This document shows, one piece after another, positions 4,534 to 63,453 of a stretch of 64,000 nucleotides of DNA (the first letter of the stretch is position 1; each line of letters starts with the position of its first letter). The notes under the pieces are model-generated. The model made no database searches and was not told the DNA's origin. It saw only the letters and a list, made by a program, of their open reading frames with translations. Both the position numbers and the translations under genes were made by a program. The DNA comes from Promethearchaeota archaeon (GTDB lineage: Archaea > Asgardarchaeota > Lokiarchaeia > Sigyniarchaeales > SOKP01), in assembly GCA_048938855.1 (NCBI GenBank), contig JBHLLT010000016.1, forward strand, positions 123 through 64,122. Direction: 5' to 3'.

Positions 4534-4658
4534 ATAAATATCCTATACTATTGAAGTTTTGATTATTTGATAATCTATAATTTTTGTATTTTTACTATTC
4601 TTAATATTTATTAAAATAGAATTTACTTTATTATTAAAAAATATAATAGTGGTAATAA

Positions 4659-21444: not shown

Positions 21445-21549
21445 CGCAGCTGGAGGGATTCGAACCCCCGAGCGCTTTCGCGCACCGGCTTTCTTGATCT
21501 CAATAAATAATACTCGAGGCCGGCGTCTTACCATCTAGGCTACAGCTGC
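21445..21549 (-). tRNA. tRNA-Ser (anticodon CGA) with a ~22-nt intron at the canonical 37/38 position
   Basis: The reverse complement gives acceptor GCAGCTG/CAGCTGC, a D-loop with GG, anticodon stem CCGGC/GCCGG and loop CU-CGA-G[intron TATTATTTATTGAGATCAAGAA, 21491-21512]A. The long variable arm GCGC-GAAA-GCGC marks a type II tRNA. The T-arm is GGGGG-TTCGAAT-CCCTC and the discriminator is G. The D-stem has one C.A mismatch. Confidence 0.75.
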
Positions 21550-26555: not shown

Positions 26556-26557
26556 TA

Positions 26558-34933: not shown

Positions 34934-37900
34934 ATGAAAGGACTAAGAATTGATTCAAAGAAGGTAATTTCTCTTACATTTTTATTGATTCTCTCATTGA
35001 GTTCAGTTTTATTATTATTTCCATCAAATTTTTTGAATTCAACAGAATTCAATCAAAATCCAGAAGAAGATAAAAAAGATAATAATTTCCGCCCATTGTT
35101 AAATGGTCCAATAGGTGAAGATCCTTGGTGGAATGTATCATATCAATGGCGCCAATGTATCAATATTACAAATCCGGGAGATTATAATTTAACTAATAAT
35201 TTCATTAGTATTCAGTTTAATTATGCAACTTTACGTGATAATTATAATATGGATCCTAACCTATACGACGTTAGAATAGTAGAGAATAATGTGGTAAGAA
35301 AATATTATGTAAAGAAAGACTTTCCTAACCTCGATACCGCAACTATATGGTTCGAAAATAATGTTACAACAGGAGAATCTGAATATGATACTTATATGTA
35401 TTGGGGGAATGCGTCCATTAATAATCGTGGAAGTAAACATCTCAATTATGATCCATCTGGATCCTCTTGGTGGCAATTTGAAGAAGGTTCTGGAGGGTAT
35501 GATTCTATTGTTCATGATTCATTAGATAATGCTGACGGTCATCTTTATGGAAGTAGTAGTAGTTATTATCCAGATTATGATTCAGATAGTGCTGTTGGAG
35601 AATATTCAATAAGTTTTGATGGTTCGCATGATTTTATATATATTGAGGATTCATTACATTATACTAATCCAAATGAGATTTCAGCTGTAACTGTTAGCTG
35701 TTGGTTTAAAACATCATTTTCAAGTAGTGGAAATTGGGATAACTGGGCGTTTTTTGATTTTGATAGATCAGAATATTTCAATTTCTTTATCACTGGAAAT
35801 GGAAGAATAGGTTTTGCTAGTTCAGCTACAGGTTATAGCGGTCAAAATGACTTTTTTGGGAGCGTTTCAGGTTTGAATGATGGTGAGTGGCATTTTGCCT
35901 GTGTAGTTTATGATGGAGTTGACAAATACATATATGTTGATAATTATGCTCCAGAGATTTGGGCCAATGCTATGGGAGGAAATGCTTTTGGAACCGGTAC
36001 TGATAGATGGGGATTTATCGGCGATGGTTCTGAAGCTACAGCAGAAAATGGAAATAGAAACAATTTTTATTATGATGGAAATATTGATGAAATTAGATAT
36101 TTTGATTATGCTGTTAATCCTGATGAAATTCAATGGCTAGCAAATTATTATTCAATTGATACAAATTTATTATCTGTTACAGAGCGAGCTGCTGCAGTAA
36201 CTATCACAGTAAAAGATATTGATAATCGATTAGTTCCTGGAGCAGAAGTTTCTTTATGGAAAAACTCTACTGATATCTTAGTATTACGTGGTGTTCCATA
36301 TACTGAATATTCCTCATCAGATGGTACAGTGTCTTTCACAAAAGTGCCTTTTGGTTTTTACAATATTACTGTGAATTATACTCTCAATTCCGGTTTGTAT
36401 GAAGAAGTTGTTTATGATAGCAGAGTTCAACCTCCTGGTGAAGTAGAATTCAAGGGATTAATTGTCAATGTTAACGTTACTGCAGATCTTTGGACAATTG
36501 ATTTTGAAGTAAATGATTGGGATGGAGATCCATTTGACCACGGCTTTGTACAAGTGGGAAATGCTACAGATTATATATTAGAAACTTTAACTTTAGACTC
36601 TGGGGGAACTGCAACCTTTCGCTGGACTGATCAACCCAATTATAATTATACAGTATATTATGATAATGTAGATTATCTAGGAAATCCAACTCGTTTAAAT
36701 TCTAGTACCATTACATATACTGGGCCAGCAATTTATGTTGAACATGTAAGAACAAGTATGTCTAAATTAGATATAAGAGTTATTGATGACACAGAAACTG
36801 TACCTGTAGAAGGTATTACAGTTAGAGTTGAGAACAGCTCATCAGGTGTTCATATAATTGATCTTAAAACAGATGATAATGGTAACGCATACGGTTTAAC
36901 TAATAGTGATGTTGGCTTTTGGTATAAAAGAAATACTATATATAACTTATCCTTATGGGTTGTGACAGAACAACGTACATTCAGAGTAAATTCTTCAGAT
37001 CAAGCTTTTAATCCTTCTACAATTTTAGATTACTATGAATACAATTTAAATTCAAGTTCTTCCTTAGTATTTGAATTAGATTTAAACTACCAAAACAGGT
37101 TATCTCGATTTTATAATAATAGTCTCGTTGCTGATTATAGTGTTGTTTTTGGTCAAAATATGTCATTTTCGATTACGTTAGAAACTTCTGATACTGGTCT
37201 TCCCGGCCCATGGGTAGCTGATGATGGTGTTGGGACAACAATAAGTTGTATAATTAAAAGTACTGCTATTGGAAACCCTACTATATACACAAAGAATATG
37301 GATTATACTATAAATGGAACATTTACTAGTGAAATTAACTCGAGTCGTTTTTCTGCTGGTGACTATGGTAAATCCTATATTGTCACTTTATCAGGTGTTA
37401 AATCATACTATAATAGTCCTGAAGATATCTTATTTGTTATATCAATAGACTCAATTTCTACTGGTATGAGCTTCCATGATTATTCTTCAATGCCCGATGA
37501 ATTACCTATAAATGAAGTCTCTCAGTATTATGATGAATTAATCAATATAACAGTAAAATATTATGATAAAAATAATAATCAAACTTTAGTTGCGGATACA
37601 TTTACTTATACTTGGGATTATGGTTCTGGCACTGTAAATTCTGATCCTTTAAATCCAGGATATTATACAGTTGAGATAGATACATCAGCAGCTACTAATG
37701 TCGGCAAATATCTTATAAAATTCACAGCAGGACGAGAGAATTATACAAAAATTGATAATTATGGATTATTTATCAATATCTTATCAAGACCGACGACCAT
37801 TAATGGTGAAGATGGAATTTTATATATCTCCCAAGACATCTTCATATTTAAAGAATTGAACTTTACTTTTATTTATTTAGATGAGATGAAAGGTACGCCT

Positions 37901-38785
37901 ATTTCAAATTTAGATGAAATGAGTTATTTATTACAAAAGCTTGATGAAAATGGTGATCCTATACCTGGTACTGCCGAAACAGGTTCTCTAGTAGCAGGAG
38001 TAGATGAGTTTATTTTGGACTTTAATACAGAAACAAGGCTAGATGGAGAATATTCAGTAATTGTGACTTTAGACAAAATGAACTGGGATCACAGAATTGC
38101 TATTATTTCATTGACAATAATGAAAAGAGAAGCGGATGTTACATTACCTGAACCTCCATTTGTTGGTACCAAAATATCAATCGCTTCAGGAGCAGCTTTA
38201 AATTTTGCTATTACTCTTACTGATCCAAATAATGAAACAGTTCCAAATGCTCCGATAAGAGGAGCAAATGTATATTTAACTATACAAGGTAGAGATATTC
38301 CATTTACTTATAATGGCAGTGGTGTTTATATTATTCAACCAACAGTTATTGCTGATGCCTTTTTTATGCCTCAAACATTTACAGCTACTCTCACTATTGA
38401 GAAACAGTATTTCTCCACTTCGGTAACTAGTATTACAGTAGTAGTTAATATGCAAGAAATCTTTGGATTTCCTATGTTCTATTTCTTGATGATAGTAGGA
38501 GCGGTTGTAGCCGTCGTAGGAAGTTTAGTTGCTTATCGTACCATCCAGAGAGCTAGAATTCCAAAGTTCGTTAAAAAAGTGAGAGAAATGAAGAAAAATA
38601 TAAAAGGAAAGAAAGATATTTCAGAATCACTATTATATCCAACTAAAGATGAATATATTGTGAAAAAATTAGGAGAAAAATGGGAAGTAATTGGATTATC
38701 ATTAGATGAAATTATGGGTCTCAGAGGTAAAAAGTCTAAGAAATTACCCGGAATGAATCAAGAATTTAAAGGAGGTGTTGATTAA
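34934..38785 (+). CDS. giant single-pass surface protein, module 3 (DUF2341-like + LamG/concanavalin-like + CarboxypepD_reg-like repeats, TM, conserved tail)
   Basis: 1283 aa. The DUF2341-like start is DPWWNVSYQWRQCINITNP...VRIVENN...YMYWGNAS. The LamG_3-like segment is FDGSHDFIYIEDS...VSCWFK...WHFACVVYDGVDKYIYVDN...IDEIRYFDYAVNPDEIQWL. The TM helix is FYFLMIVGAVVAVVGSLVAY. Confidence 0.8.
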   Translation: MKGLRIDSKKVISLTFLLILSLSSVLLLFPSNFLNSTEFNQNPEEDKKDNNFRPLLNGPIGEDPWWNVSYQWRQCINITNPGDYNLTNNFISIQFNYATLRDNYNMDPNLYDVRIVENNVVRKYYVKKDFPNLDTATIWFENNVTTGESEYDTYMYWGNASINNRGSKHLNYDPSGSSWWQFEEGSGGYDSIVHDSLDNADGHLYGSSSSYYPDYDSDSAVGEYSISFDGSHDFIYIEDSLHYTNPNEISAVTVSCWFKTSFSSSGNWDNWAFFDFDRSEYFNFFITGNGRIGFASSATGYSGQNDFFGSVSGLNDGEWHFACVVYDGVDKYIYVDNYAPEIWANAMGGNAFGTGTDRWGFIGDGSEATAENGNRNNFYYDGNIDEIRYFDYAVNPDEIQWLANYYSIDTNLLSVTERAAAVTITVKDIDNRLVPGAEVSLWKNSTDILVLRGVPYTEYSSSDGTVSFTKVPFGFYNITVNYTLNSGLYEEVVYDSRVQPPGEVEFKGLIVNVNVTADLWTIDFEVNDWDGDPFDHGFVQVGNATDYILETLTLDSGGTATFRWTDQPNYNYTVYYDNVDYLGNPTRLNSSTITYTGPAIYVEHVRTSMSKLDIRVIDDTETVPVEGITVRVENSSSGVHIIDLKTDDNGNAYGLTNSDVGFWYKRNTIYNLSLWVVTEQRTFRVNSSDQAFNPSTILDYYEYNLNSSSSLVFELDLNYQNRLSRFYNNSLVADYSVVFGQNMSFSITLETSDTGLPGPWVADDGVGTTISCIIKSTAIGNPTIYTKNMDYTINGTFTSEINSSRFSAGDYGKSYIVTLSGVKSYYNSPEDILFVISIDSISTGMSFHDYSSMPDELPINEVSQYYDELINITVKYYDKNNNQTLVADTFTYTWDYGSGTVNSDPLNPGYYTVEIDTSAATNVGKYLIKFTAGRENYTKIDNYGLFINILSRPTTINGEDGILYISQDIFIFKELNFTFIYLDEMKGTPISNLDEMSYLLQKLDENGDPIPGTAETGSLVAGVDEFILDFNTETRLDGEYSVIVTLDKMNWDHRIAIISLTIMKREADVTLPEPPFVGTKISIASGAALNFAITLTDPNNETVPNAPIRGANVYLTIQGRDIPFTYNGSGVYIIQPTVIADAFFMPQTFTATLTIEKQYFSTSVTSITVVVNMQEIFGFPMFYFLMIVGAVVAVVGSLVAYRTIQRARIPKFVKKVREMKKNIKGKKDISESLLYPTKDEYIVKKLGEKWEVIGLSLDEIMGLRGKKSKKLPGMNQEFKGGVD
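38771..38777 (+). promoter_or_regulatory. Shine-Dalgarno-like site for the module-3 partner gene
   Basis: GGAGGTG lies 7 nt upstream of the ATG at 38785, which overlaps the upstream TAA (TAATG). Confidence 0.6.
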
Positions 38786-39900
38786 TGCCAATAGGATTAG
38801 TAGTAATGAGATGGGATGAAAGAGTTGGAACTGAAATTCTTGCAAAATATCCTGAAGAAATTAATGTAACTGATAAAACCCTAATGCAAGTATACAGTAC
38901 TCATGAGTACAGTGGAGAATCTGGTATGATAAGTTTAATGATTGGTTCCTTAAACATTGCCTCATATTATACAGGACCTGATAAAGGATTTTATATCCTC
39001 TTACTTCTAAGCCTTGATGACGATCCTGATTCTTATGAGGGAGGATTGATTGACATATCACGCATAATTATCCAAAATATGAAAGATAATGCTTATACAT
39101 CAATGATCCCTACTTTATTTAGAAGGCTTTCCGTTTATCCTACATTAAATAATGAGCAACGACTTGCTATTACATATCAAGATGAAATTAAAAGGATGAT
39201 TCTAAACCGTTTAAGGGATGAAGGGGTGGTATCTAAGTCGGAATTAATGGTCTGGCTGAAAGACCAATATAAACAAGGTTTTGTAGATTTAGAAGGAGTG
39301 TTAATTGAACTTGTTAAACGTGATATCGTTAAAGAAACATCAGTTAAAGGTATGCCTTCAGAACTTATATTTTTAATACAAGATATAATTGCTTTAAGAG
39401 TACCTCCGGTTAAAATGTTAAAGGATCCTGCTACTCGAGGTCTACCTGTACAACTTGTAAATGATTACCTCATGGAAGTTAAGAAATTCTTTCAAAATTA
39501 CCGACCAACAGAAGGAGACAATCTTAGAATCATAGATATTCTTATCAATCCTCAAGTTTATGAAACTTTAAGGTTACTAAGAACAGCGATAGTTACTAAA
39601 AATGATCTTGAAAAACTAAGAAAAAAAGGGGTAGATGATCTTGATGATGTATTAAAAGTGCTATGGGACACTCAAATGATTCAAGTTTTCCAAGATGAGA
39701 GGAATAACGAATACTATGCCCTCCTGTCAGATTTCTATCTGAATTTAATATTCCCAAAATATCTCTTAAACATAATCAAGAATGTATATGATCAAAAGTC
39801 TAAAGCAAACCAAGTTTTAGTTGAATATCTAACTGTTTTAGAAAATTCTTATCAAGAAATTAAAGCAGCTGCTAAAGCTGAAGCAAAAGCTAAAGTATGA
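38785..39900 (+). CDS. cytoplasmic partner protein, module 3
   Basis: 371 aa starting MPIGLVVMRWDERVGTEI. It is collinear with the other two partners. Confidence 0.75.
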   Translation: MPIGLVVMRWDERVGTEILAKYPEEINVTDKTLMQVYSTHEYSGESGMISLMIGSLNIASYYTGPDKGFYILLLLSLDDDPDSYEGGLIDISRIIIQNMKDNAYTSMIPTLFRRLSVYPTLNNEQRLAITYQDEIKRMILNRLRDEGVVSKSELMVWLKDQYKQGFVDLEGVLIELVKRDIVKETSVKGMPSELIFLIQDIIALRVPPVKMLKDPATRGLPVQLVNDYLMEVKKFFQNYRPTEGDNLRIIDILINPQVYETLRLLRTAIVTKNDLEKLRKKGVDDLDDVLKVLWDTQMIQVFQDERNNEYYALLSDFYLNLIFPKYLLNIIKNVYDQKSKANQVLVEYLTVLENSYQEIKAAAKAEAKAKV

Positions 39901-40004: not shown

Positions 40005-41342
40005 GTGAATAAAATGGAAGGAGAATTTCCGTCTTGTGAACAGTATTATGATATACCTGAAGCGATTGGTTTAGATGGTGTGGATTTAGAAAAATATATC
40101 ATTGCTAGTTATATTATTAAGCGACCAAAAGGTATGAATGTTAATTATTTAACTCGCTTTGCCGCAATTGAACAATCTACTGGAACGTGGGTAAGAGTTC
40201 CTGCTGAAACTGCTGAAGTAAGAAAATACCATGTAGCAAGAGTGCTTGGAGTGTATGAGCTTCCTCATTGGGAATATGTAATACCTAAAGATATTAAAGA
40301 TAGACTATATTTCGCTCAAATCGCATTCCCAATAGAAAATATTAAAAATATGGGAATTCCAATGCTCTTTAGCACCGTTATTGGTAATATTAGTATAACT
40401 CATGGATTGAAATTAGTTGATCTCGCATTTCCTAAAGCATGGTTAGAAGATTTTAAAGGACCAAAATTTGGTATTGATGGAATCCGAAAACTTATGAAAA
40501 TTCCTGAACGCCCTCTCTTAAATAATATGGTTAAACCATGTACTGGTCATACAGCTGAAGTTGCGGCTGATCTAGTTTATCAGGCAGCAGTAGGAGGTTG
40601 TGATGTAGTAAAAGATGATGAGTTAATCTCTAATCCCCCCTTTAATACTCTTGAAGAGAGAATTGTAAAGGTTATGGAGGCTGTAGATAAAGCTGATTCT
40701 GAGAAAGGGGAAAAGACTTTATACACTATAAATATCACCACAAGATTTCCTGATATGTTTGAATACGCAGATAAGATGATTGAGTTAGGAGCTAATGCAT
40801 TAATGATAAATTATTTAACGACTGGTTATGAAGCATTAAGGCAGATAGCAGAAGATCCTTCTATAAATGTCCCAATTTTAGGTCATATGGATTTCGGTGG
40901 TACATATTTTGGAGGTGAATGGACAGGAATGACAAGCATGTTGACATTTGGGAAATTACCGAGAATTTGTGGGGCAGATACAGTTGTTATTCCAGCACCT
41001 TATGGTAAAGCTGAGATTGTAGAAGAGAGATATGAGCAAACTCTTAAAGCTCTTCGATATCCACTTAGTCATATTAAACCAACATTACCTATGCCATCAG
41101 GTGGAATTACACAGGGGATGGTAGAAAAATGTATTAAAGAGGCTGGGAAGGATATTCTTATTGGAAGTGGTGGTGGTATCCATAGCCATCCTGACGGTCC
41201 AATAGCAGGCGCAAGAGCATTTAGACAAGCTATAGATGCTGTGATGGAAGGTAAAAGTGTTAAAGAAGTTGCAAAAGAAAAAAAGGAATTGGGAATAGCC
41301 CTTGGTGTATGGGGTACTGGGAAAACTCAGCTTATTGAATAA
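40005..41342 (+). CDS. RuBisCO large-subunit-like protein (form III-related / form IV-like; several catalytic residues substituted)
   Basis: 445 aa. EQSTGTW, GNISI, GGCDVVKDDE (carbamyl-Lys motif), PSGG and GGGIHSHPDGPIAGARAFRQAIDA match RbcL. However, KPK is replaced by VKPCTG, HRAMH by GHMDFGG, and the His327 position is lost. Confidence 0.8.
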   Translation: MNKMEGEFPSCEQYYDIPEAIGLDGVDLEKYIIASYIIKRPKGMNVNYLTRFAAIEQSTGTWVRVPAETAEVRKYHVARVLGVYELPHWEYVIPKDIKDRLYFAQIAFPIENIKNMGIPMLFSTVIGNISITHGLKLVDLAFPKAWLEDFKGPKFGIDGIRKLMKIPERPLLNNMVKPCTGHTAEVAADLVYQAAVGGCDVVKDDELISNPPFNTLEERIVKVMEAVDKADSEKGEKTLYTINITTRFPDMFEYADKMIELGANALMINYLTTGYEALRQIAEDPSINVPILGHMDFGGTYFGGEWTGMTSMLTFGKLPRICGADTVVIPAPYGKAEIVEERYEQTLKALRYPLSHIKPTLPMPSGGITQGMVEKCIKEAGKDILIGSGGGIHSHPDGPIAGARAFRQAIDAVMEGKSVKEVAKEKKELGIALGVWGTGKTQLIE

Positions 41343-41368: not shown

Positions 41369-42328
41369 TTAATATAATAACGAATCTTTTAGAATAACCT
41401 TGATATTCTTATCAAAATAATTTGGATTCATTTCTTCTCCGAGGGGATTACCTCTCAAATCTAAATATTTAAGTTTTTTTAAACTTAAAATATAATCTAC
41501 GTTCTTAATTTCACTGATATTATTATTTGTTAAAATTAAATGCGTTAATTCTTTTAATTGAATTAACTCTTTAATGTTATCAATATTATTATTCGATAAA
41601 TCAATTTTTTTTAAAGATTTTAGATATTTTAATCCTAAAATTTCCGAAAGGGATTGTATATTGTTTTTCCATCCAAAAGGAGTGCCTTTGACTTCATATT
41701 CTAAATAATCTGATAAATCTAATTCTATAATTAATCCTTTTTGTGGATCTAATTCATAATATACATTAGAATATTTGCTTATTAGATTTTTAATCGTAAA
41801 ATAATTAATTAAAATTTCTGCTAATTCACTATGGGTAAATTTATCTATCTGTTTTGTTTTAGTGAATTTTTTAATTACTTTTTTATATTTTTTATTTTCA
41901 ATCCTTTTTTCTTTATTAAGATATTTCGTTTTTATTATCTCTTTGATTTTCTTAACTAAAATCAGCTTAGATTCATCATTATTTATCCTTTCTAATGATT
42001 GGATTATTATAACCAGGCATTCATAATCTGTTTCATGGATAAGTGCCCATTTTATGGGATTAATAGCTTTATCAAGGAATCTATCTTTTAAAATTTTGGT
42101 TGCCGCATTTCTTATTTTTTCATTTGAATCAGAAATAAGTAGATTTTCTAAAAATTTAAAGAGTTCATCACTAATTAACTCAATTTTTTCTAAATTTACA
42201 ATAGCACTTAATCTTATACTTTCATCCTCACTGTTTTCAACTAAAGACCTTATTAAATCAAATGCAGTATTTTTTTTGATCTTATTTTTGCTTAGATCTT
42301 CATATATTTCATCAGGAGTTAAATTCAT
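41369..42328 (-). CDS. HEAT-like + leucine-rich repeat protein (short paralogue)
   Basis: 319 aa. The N-terminal approximately 130 aa are collinear with 47776-49278 and 49521-51011 (LENLLISDSNEKIRNAA...PIKWAL.HE). The C-terminal LRRs read L..LDLS.N.I..I. Confidence 0.7.
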   Translation of the reverse strand: MNLTPDEIYEDLSKNKIKKNTAFDLIRSLVENSEDESIRLSAIVNLEKIELISDELFKFLENLLISDSNEKIRNAATKILKDRFLDKAINPIKWALIHETDYECLVIIIQSLERINNDESKLILVKKIKEIIKTKYLNKEKRIENKKYKKVIKKFTKTKQIDKFTHSELAEILINYFTIKNLISKYSNVYYELDPQKGLIIELDLSDYLEYEVKGTPFGWKNNIQSLSEILGLKYLKSLKKIDLSNNNIDNIKELIQLKELTHLILTNNNISEIKNVDYILSLKKLKYLDLRGNPLGEEMNPNYFDKNIKVILKDSLLY

Positions 42329-47775: not shown

Positions 47776-49278
47776 TCATTTGTAAACCTTTAATCCTCTA
47801 TCCTCTAGTCTTTTAAGAAATTCTGGTATTTTCCTTATATAATTATTAAAATTTAAGTACAGAATTCTTAATGATGAGAGATTGCCTAAAGTTTTAGGAA
47901 GAAATTTTAAATTATTCCCCCATAAATTTAACTCTTCTAATGAAGAAAGTGAATCTATCCATTCTGGTATTCTTGTGAGATTATTCCAACTTAAATCTAA
48001 CTTTTTTAGGGAATTTAAATTTTTAAATGGTTCTGGTAAGATTGAAAGATTGTTATTCCTTAAAATTAGAGTTTCTAAGGAATCTATTGAACCTATTTCA
48101 TCAGGAAGAGTTTTTATATTACAATCGTAGAGATTTAATTCTCTTAGAGAATTTAAATTTCTTAATAGAAAAAAATCAATTGAAAGTTTATTCCCTCCTA
48201 AACCTAAAGATCCCAAACTTTGAAGTTTACTAATTGAATCAGGAAGAAATTTAAGCTTATTTAAGCCTAATTCTAATTTAATTAAAGATTTAAATTCTTC
48301 CATTGATTCTGGTAAAAAATTTAACTTGTTCCCATGTAAATCCAAAATTTCTAATGATCTTAGGTTAGTGATTTCAGGTGGAAGAAATTTAATATTATTA
48401 TGTCTTAAATTTAAAGTTTTCAACTTCTTTAATCTCCCAATAGAGATTGGAATTTCATTAATCTTATTGTATTTCAAGTTTAAGTACTCCAATGATTTTA
48501 AAAAGCCGAAAGATTCAGGTAAACTCCTAAGATTATTATTACTGAGATCTAAATAGGTAAGATATTCAAGATTTCCGATTGTCTTAGGCAATTTTGTTAT
48601 TCTATTAATTTTTAAATCCAATAATCTTAGATATTTAAGAGTACTAATGAATTCTGGTAATTTTTTTAAAATTTTCCATCCAAAAACATTAGTACTAATT
48701 CCGGATAGGTCTAATGATGTTACAAGACCTTCATCCAATTTATAACTAATATCATTGAATTCCTTTTTATAATATCCTATAAGGATATAATTACTTAATA
48801 TTTCTGAAAGTTGTATTGATGTGTAACTAGTTATTTTTTTAGATTTAATAACATCTCTTAGACTTTCGTTAAACTCATATAGCTCCAAATTATTGATCTT
48901 ATCCAGTAAAAATGTTTTAGCTTTTTCACTATTTATCATACCTATTGTTGAAACAATAGAAATAAGGCAAGATGTAGAAGATTCATGTTGGAAAGCCCAT
49001 TTCATTGGCTTTAAAGCTTTTTGTATAAAGTTTTGTGAGATTGCTTTGATAGCGGTATTTCTTACTTCTTCATGAGAATCAGATATTATAAGATTTTCAA
49101 ATAAATTGAAAACTTCTTCATCTTTTGAACCAATTTTTACTAAAAAATCAATACTTTCAATTCTTAATTTTGGATCATCGAAATTATTAATTAAAGCAAA
49201 TAATTGATTTACAGCCGATTGCTTTTCCAAATTTCTATTTTGGTATTCTTTATAAATTAAGCTGGGAGATATTTTCAT
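47776..49278 (-). CDS. HEAT-like + leucine-rich repeat protein
   Basis: 500 aa. The N-terminal helical repeats are FENLIISDSHEEVRNTAIKAI...PMKWAFQHE. They are followed by about 13 LRRs of the L..L.L..N.L..LP..IG.L..L type. Confidence 0.75.
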   Translation of the reverse strand: MKISPSLIYKEYQNRNLEKQSAVNQLFALINNFDDPKLRIESIDFLVKIGSKDEEVFNLFENLIISDSHEEVRNTAIKAISQNFIQKALKPMKWAFQHESSTSCLISIVSTIGMINSEKAKTFLLDKINNLELYEFNESLRDVIKSKKITSYTSIQLSEILSNYILIGYYKKEFNDISYKLDEGLVTSLDLSGISTNVFGWKILKKLPEFISTLKYLRLLDLKINRITKLPKTIGNLEYLTYLDLSNNNLRSLPESFGFLKSLEYLNLKYNKINEIPISIGRLKKLKTLNLRHNNIKFLPPEITNLRSLEILDLHGNKLNFLPESMEEFKSLIKLELGLNKLKFLPDSISKLQSLGSLGLGGNKLSIDFFLLRNLNSLRELNLYDCNIKTLPDEIGSIDSLETLILRNNNLSILPEPFKNLNSLKKLDLSWNNLTRIPEWIDSLSSLEELNLWGNNLKFLPKTLGNLSSLRILYLNFNNYIRKIPEFLKRLEDRGLKVYK

Positions 49279-49520
49279 GAAAATTAAATATTCTAATACA
49301 ATCTAATCGATATATACAAAAATTTAAATTAAAATTTAAACTGATCCAGCTATAATTATAGTATACCTTACAATTTATCGAGGTATAATTTCTTCAATAA
49401 AATGCTCTACAATTTCAAAAATTATTTCAAAATTATGCATCCTGTACATTTTTTCTCATTAATCTTAATCTCTATATTGCCCTTTCTCGTCATATTAGAC
49501 TTAATACTTATTAATTTGTG

Positions 49521-51011
49521 TTAAATTTTTATGTTTAAATCTTTATTTCTTTCATAATCTTTCAAAAATGATGGTAGGTGCTCGAACCTATTAAAACTTA
49601 GATCTAAGGTTTTTAGATTAGATAAATTACAAATTGATTCAGGGAGAGAAGTAAGTTGATTTCCCCAGAGATTTAGTTCTTCTAATGAAGATAATTCACA
49701 GATCCATTCTGGAAGAAATGTAAAGTTATTCCAACTTAAATTAAGGTTTCTAAGATTTTTAAGATTTTTCATAGATTCAGGTAATTGAGACAATTGATTA
49801 TTTCGTAAAATAAGCATTTCTAAACGAGAAAGTGTGCCTAATGAATTAGGTAATTTATCAATTTTATTATCATATAAATCTAATATTTTTAATGATTGAA
49901 ATAGAGAAATCCATTTAGGAAGTTTTTTCAATTTATTTCCACCAATCCCCAGTCTCTCTAATGAAGTAAGAGATTTTACTTTTGTTGGGATTTCCAAAAA
50001 ATTATTCCAACCTAATTCTAACTCGATAATCGAATTATTCAGTTCAAATCCAATTGAATCTAATTTATTTCCATGTAGATTTAAAATCTTAAGATTTTTA
50101 AGTGGTTTTATTGATCTAGGGATTTTATTTATCATATTATTTCTTATATTTAAAACTTGAAGTGATTTTAACCTACTTAGAGAGTTTGGAAGATTGTGTA
50201 ATCTATTAGACTTTAAATTTAGACTCTTTAATGATTTTAATTTAAAAATTGAATTTGGAAGATTACTTAGCTTATTATAACTTAAATCTAAAGAAACTAT
50301 TGAAACTGATTCAACTGAAATTTCTTTAAGTTCTGAGAGATTGTTAAATCTCATATCAAGTTCTTCTAAATACTTCAGAGAATATATAAAATCTAAGAAA
50401 TTTGAAATAGAAATTCCTTGGGGATCAACATTTGTTAAATCTAATTTTGTGATATAACCCCATTTATTAAATTCATATTTTATAAATCCAAATTTACTTT
50501 TTAGAGATTTAATAAAATAATAGTTTACTAACAGATCAGCAAGAACTTGGATACTTAAATTTTTAAATTCTTCAGTTCTGACAATTATTTCCAAATTATA
50601 CTTATTCTCTTGCTGATAGAAATATTTTAATTTTTCAATGATGATTAATTTGGATTTTTTATTATTAATCTTTGATAATGTAGAGATAATTGTAATAAGA
50701 CAGATTATTGCTTTCTCATGTTCAAGAGCCCATTTCATTGGTTTCAACGCTTTCTCTAAAAATAGTTGCTGTATTAGGGAAGCTGCTTTATTTCTTATAG
50801 TTTCATTTGAATCTGAGATTAGTAGATTCTCTAAAAGTGTAAATATTTTATCCTCTTTAACCTGTATTTTTTCTAAGATCTCAATACTTTCTAATCTTGT
50901 TGAAAAATCATCAGTATTTTCAATTAAAGTAATTAATAAGTCAAGAGCTGACGCATAATCCAAATTTTTTCTCTTTAAATCCTGATAAATTGATTTTGGT
51001 GTTAAGGACAT
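49521..51011 (-). CDS. HEAT-like + leucine-rich repeat protein (tandem paralogue)
   Basis: 496 aa with the same architecture and a collinear N-terminus (LENLLISDSNETIRNKAASL...PMKWALEHE). Confidence 0.75.
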   Translation of the reverse strand: MSLTPKSIYQDLKRKNLDYASALDLLITLIENTDDFSTRLESIEILEKIQVKEDKIFTLLENLLISDSNETIRNKAASLIQQLFLEKALKPMKWALEHEKAIICLITIISTLSKINNKKSKLIIIEKLKYFYQQENKYNLEIIVRTEEFKNLSIQVLADLLVNYYFIKSLKSKFGFIKYEFNKWGYITKLDLTNVDPQGISISNFLDFIYSLKYLEELDMRFNNLSELKEISVESVSIVSLDLSYNKLSNLPNSIFKLKSLKSLNLKSNRLHNLPNSLSRLKSLQVLNIRNNMINKIPRSIKPLKNLKILNLHGNKLDSIGFELNNSIIELELGWNNFLEIPTKVKSLTSLERLGIGGNKLKKLPKWISLFQSLKILDLYDNKIDKLPNSLGTLSRLEMLILRNNQLSQLPESMKNLKNLRNLNLSWNNFTFLPEWICELSSLEELNLWGNQLTSLPESICNLSNLKTLDLSFNRFEHLPSFLKDYERNKDLNIKI

Positions 51012-51041: not shown

Positions 51042-52610
51042 TTAAACTCTTTCTATAACCATCCCACCTAATCGAATAGGTCCCCCGGTTGCATTATATA
51101 CCTTTTCTGCTTTCCTTAATTTTGATTCACTATGAGAATAGATTCTAAAAACTAATTCTCCTTCTTTTACTTTTGCTCCTTGTTTTTTAATTATTTCAAT
51201 TCCAGATGTTCTGGAACTAGGACATCCTGCTGTTTTTGCTATTTGATTTATTATTGAGTTATTTACTTCTACTATATAACCTTCTTTAGAACTGAAAAAT
51301 TCCTTGATATTAGGGCCGAGTTTTATATCTTCAGGTGTTATTTCAGGATTTCCTCCTTGAGCTTTAATAATTTTTTTCATCTTTTCATAAGCTTTCCCGG
51401 ATCGTAGTATTTCTTTAGCCATAGTCTGCCCCATACCCTTTTGAGCTTTACCACTCATTTCTAAAATTATTCCTGCTAAATCTGTAGATTTTTCTATTAA
51501 AGAATTGGGTCCAGCCGAGTAATCACGTAATAGAGTAAGTGCTTCTTTAGCTTCTAAAGCAGGACCTACAGCATGGCCGATAGGTTGATTAGCTAGTGTA
51601 AGTGCACATTCAGCCTCAATTCCTACGTTAGCTGCAATTTCTTTAAATATATATGCAAATTGTTTTCCTTTATCGGGTGTCGCAAATTTAGTTCCCTCTC
51701 CCACAGGTATATCAAGTACTAGCTTTTTTACTCCTAATGAAAGTTTTTTTGTTAGGATAGAAGGAATCATAAGACCAACTGGGTCCATATGTAAAGGTCG
51801 TTCAATCTCAATTAATATATTATCTGCTGGGGCTGTTTCCAGAGCACCACCCCATATTAGGCATGCATTCTCTTCAGCTACAATTTTATTTAATTCTTCT
51901 GGTGTAAAAGCAACAGGAGCTAATGCTTCCATAGAATCTGCTGTGCCTGAAGGTGAAGTTATAGCTCTTGTTGAAGATTTTGGTATTGTTAAGCCAGCAG
52001 CAGCTACAATTGGTACGATAATTAAAGAAACCTTATTCCCGGGAACGCCACCTTTTAGCAAGATTTACGAACTGTAGATCTTAGTGCTATGTTTATCGTA
52101 GACGTCCATCCCGAAATAAAAAATCTCTCCACTACGTGTTTCTGCTAATGTTAAAGCTGTCATTTCCTCATTATCCATCCCATTTATCGAAACTCCAGTA
52201 ATGAATGCTGCTAGATCGATTCGAGATAAAGAACCAGAAACTGCATCTGTGATGATTCCGTTTATTTCTTCACTTGTTAACTTTAATCCTTTTATTTTCT
52301 TCTGAATGAATTTAAATGAATCAGGTGGATCAGCAGGTTTTATAGAAACTGCAGCTCCATTTGTTAATTCTTTTTTTTCCCTTAAGAGATTTTTAAATAC
52401 TCCAATTTCTCCTGGTTCAACAATAGTACCTAAATAGTCAATTTGGATAATTGCGACCCAAAATTTCTCTTGAATAGATTTTGACTTTATATTTTTTACA
52501 TAGACGCGTTCTCCTGCTTTCTGTCCTAATTCTGCGGCATCATTAATATTTAAAACAACATCCTTAGCATTACCGGTTTCAAAATTAATTTGTTTAACTT
52601 TTAATTTCAT
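51042..52610 (-). CDS. AMP phosphorylase / thymidine phosphorylase family protein, interrupted by a 30-nt in-frame insertion containing TAA
   Basis: Track ORFs 52065-52610 and 51042-52061 are in the same frame. Together they read ...VYDKHST[KIYSS*ILLK]GGVPGNKVSLIIVPIVAAAGLTIPKSSTRAITSPSGTADSMEA..., that is the family motif DKHS(T/I)GGVPGNK split by 10 codons. The product is about 512 aa without the insert. Confidence 0.8.
52053..52083 (-). other. candidate bulge-helix-bulge (BHB) intervening sequence within the AMP phosphorylase mRNA
   Basis: On the - strand the RNA is CA[UAGC](ACU)[AAGAUCUAC]AGUUC[GUAAAUCUU][GCUA](AAA)GGUGGC. This gives a 4-bp central helix flanked by two 3-nt bulges on opposite strands, plus an inner helix with 8 of 9 pairs. 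Cutting after the second nt of each bulge removes exactly 30 nt. Confidence 0.45.
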
Positions 52611-54670: not shown

Positions 54671-56653
54671 TTAAATTTCCTCCAAAATTGCGTCTATTTG
54701 TTTTTCATATTGAGGTTCTCTGTAATATCTAAGCGTTATAGCCTCTGAAGGACAATTCGCTAAACATGTTCCACAACCCCTACATAAGATTTCATTTACT
54801 TCTGCTCCATCATCTCCTAGGGTTATAGCATTATAGGGGCAATTCAATTCACATAAACCACATTTAGCACATCGTTCTTTATTAACAGCAGCCCTGATCA
54901 GTAAAATTCGATATTTATCTTTGCCCATAAGTCTTGCGAGTGAAGATGCTGCAGCTCTACCTTGAGCTATAGACTCAACTATAGATTTTGGACCTTGACT
55001 AACTCCTGCAAGAACGATTCCCGGAATTTTTGTATCAATGGGATTTAGTCTTGCATGAAATTCTTTAAAGAAGCCATCTTGGCTTGTTTCTAATTTAAGT
55101 ATCTTTTCTATTTTTTTAACTCCGATAGCTGGTACCATTGAAGCTGAAAGTATAACCAAATCAAATTCTAGTTCTTTTAGTCCACTTGAACCTAATGTGT
55201 TCTGCATGATTATTTTTAAATTGTGTGTCTCTGGGTCTTCTTTAATCCTACTAATATTCGTCCTTATATATTTTATTCCTTCCTGTCTTGAAAGTGTAAA
55301 GTATTCTTCATAATCTTTACCAGCAGCTCGCATATCCATATACGCAACTGAGATATCCGCCTCGGGGTAATGTTGTTTAATTAATTTACTATTTTTAATA
55401 GAAATCATACAACATACTCCTGCACTACAATAAGTATTCATATTAAGATCTCTTGAGCCAACGCATTGAATAAATAATATTCTCTTCGGTTCTTTTCCAT
55501 CCGAAGGTCTTTTTAAATGTCCTATCGTAGGGCCGTTTGGGGCTAACATTCTTTCAAGCTTTAATTGAGTTATTACATTAGGATATTTATTATATCCTAA
55601 ATAACCTGTTGGTGGTTCAAATTCATCCCAACCAGTTGCAACAATAATCGATCCCACTTCTACTTCAACGATTTCATCTTGTTGATCAAAATCAATCGCA
55701 TTTACCTCACAAGCAACTTTACATAATTCGCATTTTATACATCGATCCATATCAATTTGAGCTAATGAAGGAACTGCTTGTGCAAACGCTATATAAATAG
55801 CTTTCCTCGGATCCATCCCTTCGTTGAATTCATTATATCCATATGCAGGACACACTTCAAAACAGGCACCACATCCGTTGCAATCATTTGTTACATAACG
55901 AGCTCTTTTTCTTATCTTTACTTTGAAATTACCGACAAATCCAGAAACCTCATCAACTTCACTATATGTGTATAAATTTAGATCTGGAGTTCTTGATGCT
56001 TGTAGCATCACAGGACCTAATATTCATATACTACAATCATCAGTGGGAAATGTTCGATCTAATTTAGCCATTTTACCTCCTATCGTAGGACTTTTTTCTA
56101 CGAGATGCACTTCAAATCCTTCCTCAGCAAGATCAATCCCTGCTGATAGACCAGCAACACCACCACCAATAATTAATGCTTTTTTTGTAATATCGACTTC
56201 TTTGACTAGAATCTTTTCTAAAACAGCAGCTCTAGCGACAGCAGATCGAATTATATCTTCCGCAACCTTTTGAGCACCAACCTCATCTTGTTTATGGACA
56301 AAACTAGAATGTTCGCGAATATTAGCAAATTCGAGATATGATTGGTCTAATCCCATTGATTCTAGTACACTTTTGAAAACGGGTTCATGAGTTTTTGGAG
56401 TGCAGGATACCACAACTAATCTATTTGCTTTGCTTTCAATCATTTTTTCTTTGATATACTCTGCCCCGGGTTCTGTACAAAGACTAATGTAATCCAATGA
56501 TTCAACAACATTAGGAAGGGTTTTTGAATATTCCGCTAAATTTTTAGTGTCGATGACCCCTGCGATGTTGATACCTCATTGGCAAATGAATACGGCAATC
56601 CTAGGTGTTAATTCTTCGTCATATTGTACTGTTTCGTCTTTAGTTTCTACCAT
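54671..56653 (-). CDS. hdrA: heterodisulfide reductase subunit A (HdrA) selenoprotein with two in-frame UGA codons
   Basis: A single frame runs from the ATG at 56653. It reads MVETKDETVQYDEELTPRIAVFICQ-U-GINIAGVID (TGA at 56576-56578; the family motif is VCHCG.NI), then GGGVAGLSAG (FAD), then DRTFPTDDCSI-U-ILGPVM (TGA at 56024-56026; the family motif is FPT.DCS.CIL.P). It then continues into track ORF 54671-56011 with several CxxCxxCxxxCP ferredoxin motifs. The total of 660 aa is the typical HdrA length. Confidence 0.85.
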
Positions 56654-60450: not shown

Positions 60451-61095
60451 ATGTCAGATGATACCTTTTATAACGAAATTTCAGATGCTATTGTAAACCT
60501 TGATGAAGAAAAAGCCATTGAATATGCAAATAAGGCCATAATTGAAAATATGAATTTAATTGAGGTTATCGAAAAAGGTTTTGCTGAAGGAATTCGAACT
60601 ATTGGAGAATTATGGGAAGACGGTGAATATTTCTTACCAGAACTAATGCGAGGTGCACAAATAATGCAAAATTGTTTAGATCTTCTCATACCTCATCTTC
60701 AAAACTCCTCAGCACAAATTTCAAGGGGTAAAGTAGTTATAGCAACCATTGAGGGGGATATTCACTCAATTGGAAAAACAATTGTAGCTACAATGTTAAG
60801 AGCTTATGGGTATGAAGTTTATGATTTAGGAGCGGATGTTCCCGTCGAGAAAATTGTAGAAGAAGCTATTGAGAAAGAAGCAGATATCATTGGGGTTTCA
60901 GCCTTATTAACAACCACCATGACGAGTCAGAAGAAAGTTATTGAGCTTTTAAAAGAGAAAAATGTAGCTAATAAATTCAAAGTTATTCTTGGTGGTGCTC
61001 CTGTAACAAATTCATGGGTAGAAGAGTGTAACGCTGATGGTTTTGCAGAAAATGCAATAGAAGCGGTTAAATTGGTAAAATCTCTTTTAAGTTAG
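60451..61095 (+). CDS. cobalamin-binding corrinoid protein (methyltransferase cognate corrinoid protein)
   Basis: 214 aa. It has an N-terminal helical cap, then the B12-binding motif EGDIHSIGK (DxHxxG), SALLTTT and LGGAP. Confidence 0.85.
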   Translation: MSDDTFYNEISDAIVNLDEEKAIEYANKAIIENMNLIEVIEKGFAEGIRTIGELWEDGEYFLPELMRGAQIMQNCLDLLIPHLQNSSAQISRGKVVIATIEGDIHSIGKTIVATMLRAYGYEVYDLGADVPVEKIVEEAIEKEADIIGVSALLTTTMTSQKKVIELLKEKNVANKFKVILGGAPVTNSWVEECNADGFAENAIEAVKLVKSLLS

Positions 61096-61122
61096 TAAAA
61101 CTTTTTTTCAGAGGTAGTTCTT

Positions 61123-62001
61123 ATGTTATTTCATGATTGGTTAAAAGATGATTCAAAAATTATACTTTTTGATGGAGGATTTGGGAGTGAATTAATCAAA
61201 AGGGGTTTAGAATCAGGAAAAATCCCTGATATTTTAAATATTGAACAACCAAATATAATATCTGAAATCCATCAATCTTATTATGATGTTGGTTCGGATA
61301 TGTGTCAAACCAATACTTTTGGTTCAACTCCCTTAAATTTATCTCGTCATAATCTTGAAAATCGAATAGAAGATATTATTGAGAATGCAATAAAAAATAT
61401 ACAAAAAGTTTGCCCATCAGGATGTTTGATTGTTGGAGATATTGGTCCAACAGGCGAATTTAGGCCACCAGTAGGGAATGCTTCAATTGATCAATGGTAT
61501 TCAAGTTATTCAACTCAAGTTAAATTACTAGAAAAAGGAGTGGATCTTTGGCATATTGAGACAATTTCAGATCTTGAAGAAATGTTAGCTGCAATAAAAG
61601 CCGTACGAGAAGTTTCTAAAAAAGCCTTGATTGCTTCAATCACGTATAAAAAGACAAAAAGAGGATTCTTTACAATTATGGGGGATTCATTAGAAAAATG
61701 TATAGAAACCTTGAATCATGAAGAAGTAGATGTTATTGGAGCAAATTGCACAATAGGATCCAATGATATGCTTGAATTACTAAAACTAGCTAAAAACTAT
61801 ACTAGTAAACCTTTTTCTGTTAAACCTAATGCTGGTCAACCCATTGTTGAAAACGGTAAGACTTATTATTATCAACCTGTAGAAGAATTCGCCAGTGACA
61901 TACATGAAATGATTAAACTTGGAGCGAAAATAGTAGGAGGATGTTGTGGTACTTCACCAAAAACAATAATGTCAATTAGAAATATTATAGATTCAATTTA
62001 A
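61123..62001 (+). CDS. homocysteine S-methyltransferase-domain protein (zinc-thiol methyltransferase, MetH N-terminal-domain-like)
   Basis: 292 aa. LFDGGFGSEL, QTNTFG, GANC and GGCCGT (three Zn-ligand Cys) are the Pfam S-methyl_trans pattern. Confidence 0.8.
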   Translation: MLFHDWLKDDSKIILFDGGFGSELIKRGLESGKIPDILNIEQPNIISEIHQSYYDVGSDMCQTNTFGSTPLNLSRHNLENRIEDIIENAIKNIQKVCPSGCLIVGDIGPTGEFRPPVGNASIDQWYSSYSTQVKLLEKGVDLWHIETISDLEEMLAAIKAVREVSKKALIASITYKKTKRGFFTIMGDSLEKCIETLNHEEVDVIGANCTIGSNDMLELLKLAKNYTSKPFSVKPNAGQPIVENGKTYYYQPVEEFASDIHEMIKLGAKIVGGCCGTSPKTIMSIRNIIDSI

Positions 62002-62010
62002 AAATAAAAA

Positions 62011-63453
62011 ATGAAAGAGAATGTAATTATGTCAATAATTAGACCAAAGATAAAAATATTAGATGATAACCATAAGCAAAAGATTTTAGAAGAAGCTAAG
62101 ATGATTCTCGAAACTCAAGGAGTTTTTATAGAAAATCATGAAGCAATCGAGATGTTTAATAAGCATGGCATTAATCACGAAGGTTTGCGCTATTATATCC
62201 CACCAGATTTGATAAATAAATCTTTGAGTACTGTACCGAGTGAAATTACTCTTTATGATCGAGAAGGAAATAAGCATAGCGCATTGAAGGGGGATAACAT
62301 TAACTACGATCCAGGATCAGCAGCAATTTTTATACTTGATGAGGAAACAGGAGATATAAGGGAAGGACTGTCAAAAGATTTCATAAGATTCTCTAAAATT
62401 GTTGAACAATTGGAATTTATTGATGCTCAAAGTACAGCTTTAATTTATAAAGATGTACCAAAAGACGCTCAAGATTGGCATAGATTATATTTAGCGCTAT
62501 CTAATTGTTATAAACCTGTCGTAACTGGAACATTCCGTAAAGAAAGTTTCTCAATAATGCGCGAAATCCTATTAGCATGTAGATTATCAGAAGATGATTT
62601 GGCGAAAAAACCACTCGCTATTTTTGATGCATGTCCTAGTCCACCTCTCAAATGGTCAGATCTTACAACTCAATCATTAATAGATGCAGCAAAAAGTATG
62701 ATTCCATCAGAATTTGTTTCAATGCCATTAGCAGGAGCAAATGCTCCGATTACTTTAATTGGGTCCATTACTCAACATTGTGCAGAATGTCTTGCTGGAG
62801 TAGTAATTGCTCAACTCACTAATAACGGAGCACCATTAGTATGGGGAGGTTCTCCTGCTGTTTTTGATATGAAACATGGAACAACCCCAATGGGTGCTAT
62901 AGAAACGATGATGATAAACTTAGGAGATGTTGAAATAGGCAAATTCTTGAATTTGCCAACACATGCATATATGTCCCTTAGTGATGCTAAGATTCCTGAT
63001 AATCAAGCTGGTTTTGAAGCAGGTATGGGTGCTTTATTAGCAGGTTTAGCAGGAATTAACATGATTTCAGGTCCTGGAATGCTTGATTTTGAATCAACTC
63101 AAAGTATTGAAAAGATAATTATTGATAATGAAATCATTGGGATGGTTAAAAGATTAATTCAGGGGATTGAAGATCATGGGTCACCATTTGCTTCAGATAT
63201 TCTAAAAGATTATGATAATACACAAGAACTATTGTCTCATACCTCAACATTAAAGTACTTTAGAAAAGAATTATTTTTTCCTAGTCCAATAGTGGATAGA
63301 ATGACTCGTGATTCATGGAAGGATAGTGGTTCAAAATCTACTAGAGGTAGAGCTAAGGAAGAAGCAATTAAGTTATTAAAGAAAAGCTCTATTAAACCAA
63401 TTGAGGATATTTTATTGAAGGAATTTGATAAAATAGTCAGATCATACTTATAA
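62011..63453 (+). CDS. MttB-superfamily methyltransferase, non-pyrrolysine member
   Basis: 480 aa, uninterrupted with no in-frame TAG. The N-terminal ...ILDDNHKQKILEEAKMILETQGVFIENHEAIEMFNKHG and the overall length fit the trimethylamine methyltransferase (MttB) family. Confidence 0.75.
   Translation: MKENVIMSIIRPKIKILDDNHKQKILEEAKMILETQGVFIENHEAIEMFNKHGINHEGLRYYIPPDLINKSLSTVPSEITLYDREGNKHSALKGDNINYDPGSAAIFILDEETGDIREGLSKDFIRFSKIVEQLEFIDAQSTALIYKDVPKDAQDWHRLYLALSNCYKPVVTGTFRKESFSIMREILLACRLSEDDLAKKPLAIFDACPSPPLKWSDLTTQSLIDAAKSMIPSEFVSMPLAGANAPITLIGSITQHCAECLAGVVIAQLTNNGAPLVWGGSPAVFDMKHGTTPMGAIETMMINLGDVEIGKFLNLPTHAYMSLSDAKIPDNQAGFEAGMGALLAGLAGINMISGPGMLDFESTQSIEKIIIDNEIIGMVKRLIQGIEDHGSPFASDILKDYDNTQELLSHTSTLKYFRKELFFPSPIVDRMTRDSWKDSGSKSTRGRAKEEAIKLLKKSSIKPIEDILLKEFDKIVRSYL

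Follow-up and report, generated by a model that had tools for sequence, protein, structure and literature searches.

We analyzed a 64,000-nt stretch of contig JBHLLT010000016.1 (assembly GCA_048938855.1, Promethearchaeota archaeon; hereafter the window), in which the minus-strand gene for AMP phosphorylase is interrupted by a short insert. Comparison with other Asgard loci makes it very probable that these 30 nt, at 52083..52054, are an intron of the bulge-helix-bulge (BHB) or endonuclease type in the AMP phosphorylase mRNA of an Asgard archaeon of the Lokiarchaeia type. A preliminary description of the same sequence had proposed a relaxed BHB intron in this mRNA, and the proposal is supported by the recurrence of the insert, by the lengths in which it occurs, by covariation and by codon constraint. 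From these sequence comparisons we infer splicing itself, with the tRNA-splicing endonuclease EndA and an RtcB-type ligase as its enzymes.

Two minus-strand open reading frames (ORFs), 52610..52065 (181 aa) and 52061..51042 (339 aa), share one frame, and the reading across both is ...VYDKHST-KIYSS*-ILLK-GGVPGNKVSL. The insert lies between HST and GG of the invariant AMP phosphorylase motif and contains an in-frame TAA at 52067-52065. This arrangement, already recognized in the preliminary description, was seen in the sequence and in comparisons with the TIGR03327 family (AMP phosphorylase equivalog; archaeal DeoA-type) and with PDB entry 4GA5; the range given there for the insert, 52053-52083, had the right location but was one base too long at one end, the BHB rule yielding 52083..52054. 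Deletion of the 30 nt results in a 512-aa protein that matches positions 1-500 of 500 of TIGR03327 with 566 bits (curated cutoff, 535 bits) and aligns at E = 3e-119 with 4GA5, the solved enzyme of Thermococcus kodakarensis, in which the motif HSIGGVPGNK is contiguous. The full-length TIGR03327 match and the intact HS(T/I)GGVPGNK motif are reached only once the 30 nt are removed. The spliced product shares 91-93% identity with intact orthologues, and its closest protein relatives all come from Asgard metagenome-assembled genomes (MAGs) with Promethearchaeota or Lokiarchaeota labels and, for some, the submitters' Hod-, Thor- or Hermod- labels. The G+C content of the window is 29.7%. A homologue of the RuBisCO large subunit (PF00016 + PF02788) is encoded at 40005-41342 on the plus strand, ~10 kb from the interrupted gene; RuBisCO is the enzyme that acts downstream of its partner AMP phosphorylase in the AMP (salvage) pathway of archaea, and we count this proximity as support. 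NCBI annotates the gene fragments as 'hypothetical protein'. The gene is composed of the following parts:

51042..52610, minus strand: AMP phosphorylase gene (pre-mRNA coding region with exon 1, putative intron and exon 2, stop codon included), assigned from TIGR03327, 4GA5 and orthologues.
52084..52610, minus strand: exon 1, 527 nt, 3' end ...GAU AAA CAU AGC AC; ratio of nonsynonymous to synonymous rates (dN/dS) 0.077.
52054..52083, minus strand: putative intron, 30 nt, UAAGAUCUACAGUUCGUAAAUCUUGCUAAA; boundaries from the BHB rule, homologous inserts in 50 other loci.
51042..52053, minus strand: exon 2, 5' start A GGU GGC GUU CCC..., stop codon included; dN/dS 0.069.

The comparison with orthologues that had been suggested as a check was carried out on two collections. 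A protein-based scan of one genome per GTDB species yielded 72 loci, 71 of them with the motif region (locus L062 is partial), and JGI metagenome contigs were scanned by DNA pattern, so that the loci retrieved there were chosen for having the insert. An insert between ...AGY AC and N GGN GGN was present in 19 of the 71 genome-representative loci; with the window added, the unbiased set comprises 72 loci, 20 with the insert and 52 without it. The JGI contigs contributed 31 more insert-bearing loci. Altogether, a homologous insert occurs at the identical nucleotide in 50 other Asgard loci from independent assemblies (JGI, ENA, NCBI). The 51 insert-bearing loci, window included, represent 43 distinct sequences over the region aligned in our structural alignment A1 (40 if shorter flanks are compared). 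The insert is 30 nt long in 43 loci, 29 nt in 6 and 31 nt in 2, and the length differences are located in the hairpin loop of the predicted RNA structure, which has 4, 5 or 6 nt (7 nt in locus L081). The 29- and 31-nt forms place exon 2 in a frame different from that of exon 1, which excludes translation through the insert (readthrough).

The insert is also found in two other assemblies of essentially the window's species, L104 (ENA) and L105 (JGI), whose exon-2 proteins are 99% identical to that of the window. These independent assemblies exclude an assembly artefact, a doubt that the preliminary description itself had raised. One base pair of the inner helix, G52080-C52062, is G-C in the window, G-U in L105 and A-U in L104, a series that, read from the three sequences, is a compensatory path via a G-U intermediate. 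After excision of the insert, each of the complete insert-bearing genes has one uninterrupted frame of 509-513 aa. Median dN/dS values for 37 insert-bearing genes were 0.077 for exon 1 and 0.069 for exon 2 (dS ~1.5); judged by these ratios, both exons are under strong purifying selection. The insert itself changes more slowly than synonymous sites of the same genes, with a mean p-distance of 0.29 for the intron vs a proportion of synonymous differences (pS) of 0.66-0.69. An in-frame stop codon within an invariant motif, together with the NCBI naming of the fragments, might suggest a dead gene or a 30-nt error. Against this stand the 50 other loci from independent assemblies, the dN/dS of ~0.07 on both exons, the absence of further disruption in 37 complete genes and an insert that evolves slowly and with compensatory changes, so that a pseudogene or artefact is effectively refuted and retains next to no probability. 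The extra 102 nt of locus L065 (an apparent 34-aa insertion in exon 1, ~91-720) are a run of Ns with duplicated ELASFIT flanks, and a second intron at this locus was rejected as a scaffolding artefact. In locus L025, the gene is frameshifted close to its 3' end (~4488-4565).

The pairing set out in the preliminary description (helix UAGC:GCUA, bulge ACU, an inner helix with 8 of 9 pairs formed, loop AGUUC, and AAA) is present on inspection of the window sequence, and the minimum free energy (MFE) fold of 71 nt holds the proposed motif in a slightly slipped form. Its elements, with the central helix denoted H and the inner, intron-side helix denoted h', are as follows:

52086..52089, minus strand: central helix H, 5' strand UAGC, made of exon bases (Ser codon preceded by the third base of the His codon), pairing with 52056-52059.
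52083..52085, minus strand: 5' bulge ACU, with the predicted 5' cut between 52084 and 52083; 3-nt spacing in 43/43 sequences.
52074..52082, minus strand: inner helix h', 5' strand AAGAUCUAC; compensatory changes at 8/9 pairs.
52069..52073, minus strand: hairpin loop AGUUC, to which length variation among homologues is confined.
52060..52068, minus strand: inner helix h', 3' strand GUAAAUCUU; covariation, RNAalifold.
52056..52059, minus strand: central helix H, 3' strand GCUA (intron); covariation, RNAalifold.
52053..52055, minus strand: 3' 'bulge' AAA, with the predicted 3' cut between 52054 and 52053; near-invariant, without a supported outer helix closing it.

Conservation of this structure was assessed in alignment A1 (43 sequences) against 500 column shuffles and against partners slid by 1-3 columns. 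Paired cells amounted to 94.7%, compared with 83.5% in the shuffles and 31-42% with slid partners, and 59 double-change cells were observed where 10.6 were expected; none of the 500 shuffles reached the observed pairing values. Compensatory changes on both sides were detected in 11 of 15 tested pairs, and in 10 of the 13 pairs that make up H and h'. De novo folding with RNAalifold of 103 columns, including wide exon flanks, returned no elements other than the 4-bp H, a 3-nt bulge and the 9-bp h'. The 4-bp central helix, formed by columns 15-18 with 46-49, pairs in 98.3-100% of cells. Beside it, exactly three nucleotides (A, C, N) are unpaired in all 43 sequences, including the shifted locus L081, and the 9-bp helix h' on the intron side is paired in 94-95% of cells with compensatory changes at eight of its nine pairs. 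Loci L089, L090 and L094 have wholly different hairpin sequences at the same position.

Helix H is built partly of exon bases. At the outermost pair, which involves the third base of the His codon, 31 sequences have U-A and 11 have C-G; at the fourth pair, with the third base of the Ser codon, C-G occurs in 33, U-G in 7 and U-A in 2. Synonymous exon sites thus covary with intron bases. The codons around the junction are constrained as well in the unbiased genome set (junction codons of L001-L072). The Ser codon is AGY in 20/20 loci with the intron vs 26/52 without it (p = 2e-5), the Lys codon is AAA in 19/20 vs 24/52 (p = 1e-4), and the second Gly codon is GGC in 17/20 vs 7/52 (p = 2e-8). The supported helices H and h' do not explain the GGC bias, which suggests an additional contact in exon 2, either an outer helix or recognition by the enzyme. 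The three positions of the AAA element are A in 42/43, 43/43 and 38/43 sequences, although they are non-coding or synonymous.

Archaeal splicing endonucleases cut between the second and third residue of each bulge (PMC2738675). Applied in silico, this rule removes 29, 30 or 31 nt as fitting and leaves CAY AGY ACA GGN GGN, i.e., HSTGG, in all 43 variants checked by eye. Locus L081, with an H of AGUA/UACU, bulges CAA and AAG, a loop 2 nt longer and the whole motif displaced by 1 nt, still gives HSTGG, and this is the only match of a strict, blind automated detector at that locus. Overall, the detector recovered HSTGG in 32 of 44 regions, and it misses only those in which a mismatch in h' adjoins the bulge. 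A cut after the second bulge nucleotide, as originally postulated for the window alone, thus predicts the correct junction in the 29-, 30- and 31-nt forms and the shifted form.

The same variants bear on two explanations at the level of translation. The gene might be split, its halves (181 aa, and 339 aa from a TTG inside the insert) being translated separately and then assembled, with the hairpin as an intercistronic element. This is in line with an in-frame TTG that precedes GG by 6 or 9 nt in 29 of 40 distinct variants and with public annotations that call the 339-aa ORF as a gene. However, 11 of the 40 variants, including all 29- and 31-nt forms, lack any start codon downstream of the last in-frame stop and ahead of the invariant GG, and the TTG is a by-product of the helix strand UUUUG(C/U)UA. 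The break would moreover fall within the contiguous phosphate-binding loop HS(T/I)GGVPGNK, and a split gene assigns no role to the covariation between synonymous exon-1 sites and the insert 3' end or to the fixed 4-bp/3-nt geometry, which leaves a split gene highly improbable. Alternatively, the ribosome might skip the hairpin and stop codon by translational bypassing, as in T4 gene 60 and the mitochondrial byps. Those elements likewise combine a short in- or out-of-frame insert, a stop codon and a hairpin in an essential gene. The AMP phosphorylase insert resembles them in being short and in having a stable hairpin right after the last decoded codon, and an in-frame stop follows within 0-9 codons in 40/40 variants. 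Bypassing requires matched take-off and landing codons, whereas none of the 40 landing triplets equals ACN or shares its first two bases, and the 4-bp exon-insert helix and the conserved AAA are specific to BHB geometry; we accordingly give bypassing very little credence.

The following observations weigh against the intron interpretation. Taken by itself, the window sequence folds with ordinary energy (z-score = -0.19, uninformative either way), and a loose BHB motif, defined as a 4-bp H with G-U allowed, a 3-nt bulge and an h' of at least 5 bp, occurs 2095-2495 times per strand in the window vs 2106-2284 times in shuffles. The single-sequence fold is thus no better than chance, and the case rests on the comparative data. 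The second 3-nt bulge is not closed by an outer helix h, as it is in the strict hBHBh' motif, and RNAalifold predicted no outer helix on the 103-column alignment. The candidate adjacent to AAA consists of an A.G mismatch and then the pairs C-G and A-U; the C-G pair is invariant due to coding, and the A-U pair has a single compensatory case, in locus L070. For a long-range candidate helix, GACGUCUAC/GGUGGCGU, 88% of cells can pair, with zero compensatory changes. Neither the adjacent 2-bp helix nor the long-range one is backed by covariation, and both were rejected as a strict outer helix; the motif is therefore classed as relaxed (HBh'-like), in keeping with the weak outer helix conceded in the preliminary description. 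Exact look-up of 10 spliced proteins in a collection of 15 billion sequences found none of them, and BLAST of all spliced products against intact database proteins gave no match above 93% identity. Neither EndA nor RtcB is among the ~46 Pfam-annotated ORFs of the window. The neighbor-joining tree on which the history of the intron is traced below covers 85 complete proteins and is a gene tree, not a species tree, and its metagenome loci were selected for the insert.

A competing register of the fold must be added to these points. With H AGCA/UGCU and bulge CUA, it can form in many sequences, among them that of the window, where it belongs to the MFE fold; it would remove 28 nt and break the frame. 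The 30-nt register is preferred on covariation data alone: its distinguishing pairs covary in 11 and 8 sequences, and the 28-nt register was rejected, since the single pair that sets it apart is not formed in 9 of 43 sequences and covaries in none. This alternative register and the missing outer helix could speak for removal of the insert from the RNA by a mechanism other than EndA plus RtcB, for instance by a different structure-specific nuclease, or through the 28-nt register together with an event that compensates for it. BHB geometry, however, predicts the correct junction in the 29-, 30-, 31-nt and shifted forms, and (alpha-beta)2 endonucleases are known to accept relaxed motifs as substrates (PMC5829648, PMC2738675). 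Such motifs are cut only by the (alpha-beta)2 and epsilon2 enzymes, and the EndA of Asgard archaea is an (alpha-beta)2 enzyme, with an L1 specificity loop and broad specificity (PMC5829648). The BHB motifs of introns in cbf5 are likewise mostly unconventional (PMC2738675). Another mechanism is not needed, and we consider it very unlikely.

Under the intron interpretation, the exon-1 end UAGC (of CAU-AGC) would pair with GCUA near the insert 3' end to form the 4-bp H, flanked on one side by the bulge ACU and the 9-bp hairpin h' and on the other by the conserved AAA. EndA would cleave each 3-nt element after its second nucleotide, and an RtcB-type ligase would join the exons to ...CAU AGC ACA GGU GGC... 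(HSTGG), restoring the phosphate-binding motif and the 512-aa enzyme. The predicted spliced junction is ...CAUAGCAC|AGGUGGC..., or, with wider flanks, ...GAUAAACAUAGCAC|AGGUGGCGUU..., and the predicted junction-spanning peptide is DKHSTGGVPGNK. The unspliced mRNA would allow only the 181-aa N-terminal fragment. Splicing by EndA and RtcB would proceed through 2',3'-cyclic phosphate and 5'-OH ends and would release the intron in circular or linear form.

The window itself contains a tRNA with a BHB intron. A class II tRNA-Ser(CGA) gene with a long variable arm, at 21445-21549 on the minus strand, was missed by ARAGORN and scores 43.4 bits against the Rfam tRNA model. It carries a 22-nt BHB intron at the canonical position 37/38, with an H of CUCG/CAAG (one C.A mismatch) and bulges AGU and AAA; the organism must therefore have the splicing machinery. 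A gene for a LigT / 2'-5' RNA ligase-like protein (2H phosphoesterase) lies at 2831-3415 on the minus strand. The LigT / 2H phosphoesterase family acts on 2',3'-cyclic phosphate RNA ends, and this gene may be relevant to RNA end metabolism.

Throughout the gene tree described above, intron-bearing genes occur in a scattered pattern that extends to the deepest branches, which hold the 29- and 31-nt forms. Fitch parsimony assigns the intron to the root and requires at least 15 changes; a history with a single gain implies 17 precise losses, and one without loss implies 21 gains at the same nucleotide. The sequence types of the intron track the gene clades, a pattern consistent with vertical inheritance and recurrent exact loss. 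By these reconstructions, the intron looks ancient in the AMP phosphorylase gene lineage and precisely lost many times. After loss of the intron, the Ser codon is free to become TCN.

The closest known counterpart is the intron in the pre-mRNA of cbf5, the pseudouridine synthase gene of Crenarchaeota (Watanabe 2002; Yoshinari 2006; Yokobori 2009, PMC2738675), which was the only BHB intron in a coding sequence counted in a 2020 study (PMC7714728; also PMC2738675). Both introns are short and interrupt coding sequence inside a motif that is catalytic or invariant, namely at the catalytic Asp codon in cbf5 and at HST|GG in AMP phosphorylase. Both have a relaxed BHB with cuts, predicted in AMP phosphorylase, between the second and third bulge residues, and a hetero-oligomeric, broad-specificity endonuclease is shared by the hosts, presumably including the Asgard one. 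Both are distributed patchily, as expected of repeated loss or gain, and both genes have been mis-annotated as split or frameshifted. The two cases differ in gene and lineage, the present one being AMP phosphorylase of Asgard/Lokiarchaeia, and in that splicing was demonstrated experimentally for cbf5 and is predicted from sequence here. Among archaeal tRNA introns, those that contain an hBHBh' or relaxed HBh' motif (Marck and Grosjean 2003, cited in PMC5829648) have the same 4-bp H, 3-nt bulges, flanking helix and small size, and the 22-nt tRNA-Ser(CGA) intron of the window has the same AAA 3' bulge. In contrast to them, the AMP phosphorylase mRNA has no tRNA body, its outer helix is unsupported and its 3' site lies in an open or loop context. 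The BHB intron of Haloferax volcanii HVO_1309 is likewise an mRNA substrate of the splicing endonuclease, but it is situated in the 5' untranslated leader, whereas that of AMP phosphorylase interrupts the reading frame (PMC7714728).

AMP phosphorylase would be the second archaeal protein-coding gene family with a BHB intron. We found no report of an AMP phosphorylase intron or of Asgard mRNA introns in a literature search that covered few subscription journals, and prior publication is possible. If the second gene family is real, mRNA splicing by the tRNA machinery is no crenarchaeal curiosity. The host belongs to the Asgard archaea, the lineage closest to eukaryotes, and the intron is conserved over deep divergence with clear covariation. 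It would offer a clean natural substrate for defining recognition by the Asgard (alpha-beta)2 endonuclease (AAA, 4-bp H, outer helix not required), and it bears on the origin of eukaryotic RtcB-dependent mRNA splicing. The unconventional cytoplasmic splicing of HAC1/XBP1 involves a very short intron (26 nt in XBP1), a protein-only endonuclease and RtcB-type ligation. It shares with AMP phosphorylase the very short intron, a removal that changes or restores the frame, and protein-only endonucleolytic excision and RtcB-type ligation, the latter two predicted for AMP phosphorylase; in HAC1/XBP1 the nuclease is IRE1, which recognizes twin stem-loops, and splicing serves as a regulated stress switch. 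A more far-reaching proposal, which we regard as unlikely on present sequence evidence, is that splicing gates the active AMP phosphorylase, the unspliced mRNA yielding the 181-aa N-terminal domain only; the intron would then be an Asgard counterpart of the HAC1/XBP1-type switch and possibly the first of a wider set of unannotated endonuclease-type introns in Asgard coding genes. In more than 20 species-level MAGs and many metagenome contigs, this enzyme of nucleotide salvage and the RuBisCO pathway is annotated as two fragments or 'hypothetical protein', which distorts metabolic reconstructions of Asgard archaea.

A BHB scan of the whole window detected other matches that would fuse reading frames; they are intergenic or implausible, and there is thus no second mRNA intron in these 64 kb. 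Two ORF pairs were rejected as BHB introns for reasons of their own. The HdrA-like FAD/Fe-S protein at 54671-56497 (minus strand; ORF pair 56024/56011) has a single in-frame TGA at 56024-56026, within TFPTDDCSI[TGA]ILGPVM, at the conserved Cys/Sec position of heterodisulfide reductase A. To judge from this position, the TGA is most likely a selenocysteine (Sec) codon, with one product of ~608 aa, instead of marking an intron. The gene for a Gtr1/RagA-like small GTPase at 20446-21431 (plus strand; ORF 20446-20643) switches frame near 20506-20512: one frame encodes a plausible N-terminus, MLEDLSIKTFQYILGDFLRPRK, and the -1 frame encodes the P-loop, KICVIGLDNAGKTS, and all that follows, without a start codon of its own. 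The switch falls on the A-run ccaagaaaatatg, and one additional A restores the frame; this -1 frameshift, which replaces an intron as the explanation, may reflect an error in sequencing, recent pseudogenization or programmed -1 frameshifting.

The AMP phosphorylase gene is followed directly, on its downstream side, by the genes for two leucine-rich repeat (LRR) proteins of ~500 aa each. They belong to a set of eukaryote-like signalling proteins typical of Asgard archaea, encoded at 47776-51011, 41369-42328, 33368-34408 and 11552-12517 (all minus strand), which also includes another LRR protein, a Roc/Arf-type GTPase and a second Gtr1/RagA-like GTPase. A methyltransferase cluster at 60451-63453 (plus strand) encodes a corrinoid (B12-binding) protein, a homocysteine S-methyltransferase-like protein and an MttB-family protein of 480 aa. 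The Rfam pyrrolysine (Pyl) insertion element PYLIS_3 matches with 46 bits at 62979-63076, inside the MttB gene, whose ORF has no in-frame TAG; the protein is probably a non-Pyl member of the MttB superfamily, and the PYLIS_3 match probably reflects coding similarity. Three tandem two-gene cassettes on the plus strand (22896-27661, 27832-33326 and 34934-39900) each consist of a very large ORF (1219, 1460 and 1283 aa, respectively) followed directly by an ORF of ~370 aa. These cassettes are nearly without Pfam matches, the only one being a Laminin_G_3 / concanavalin-like domain in the third large protein.

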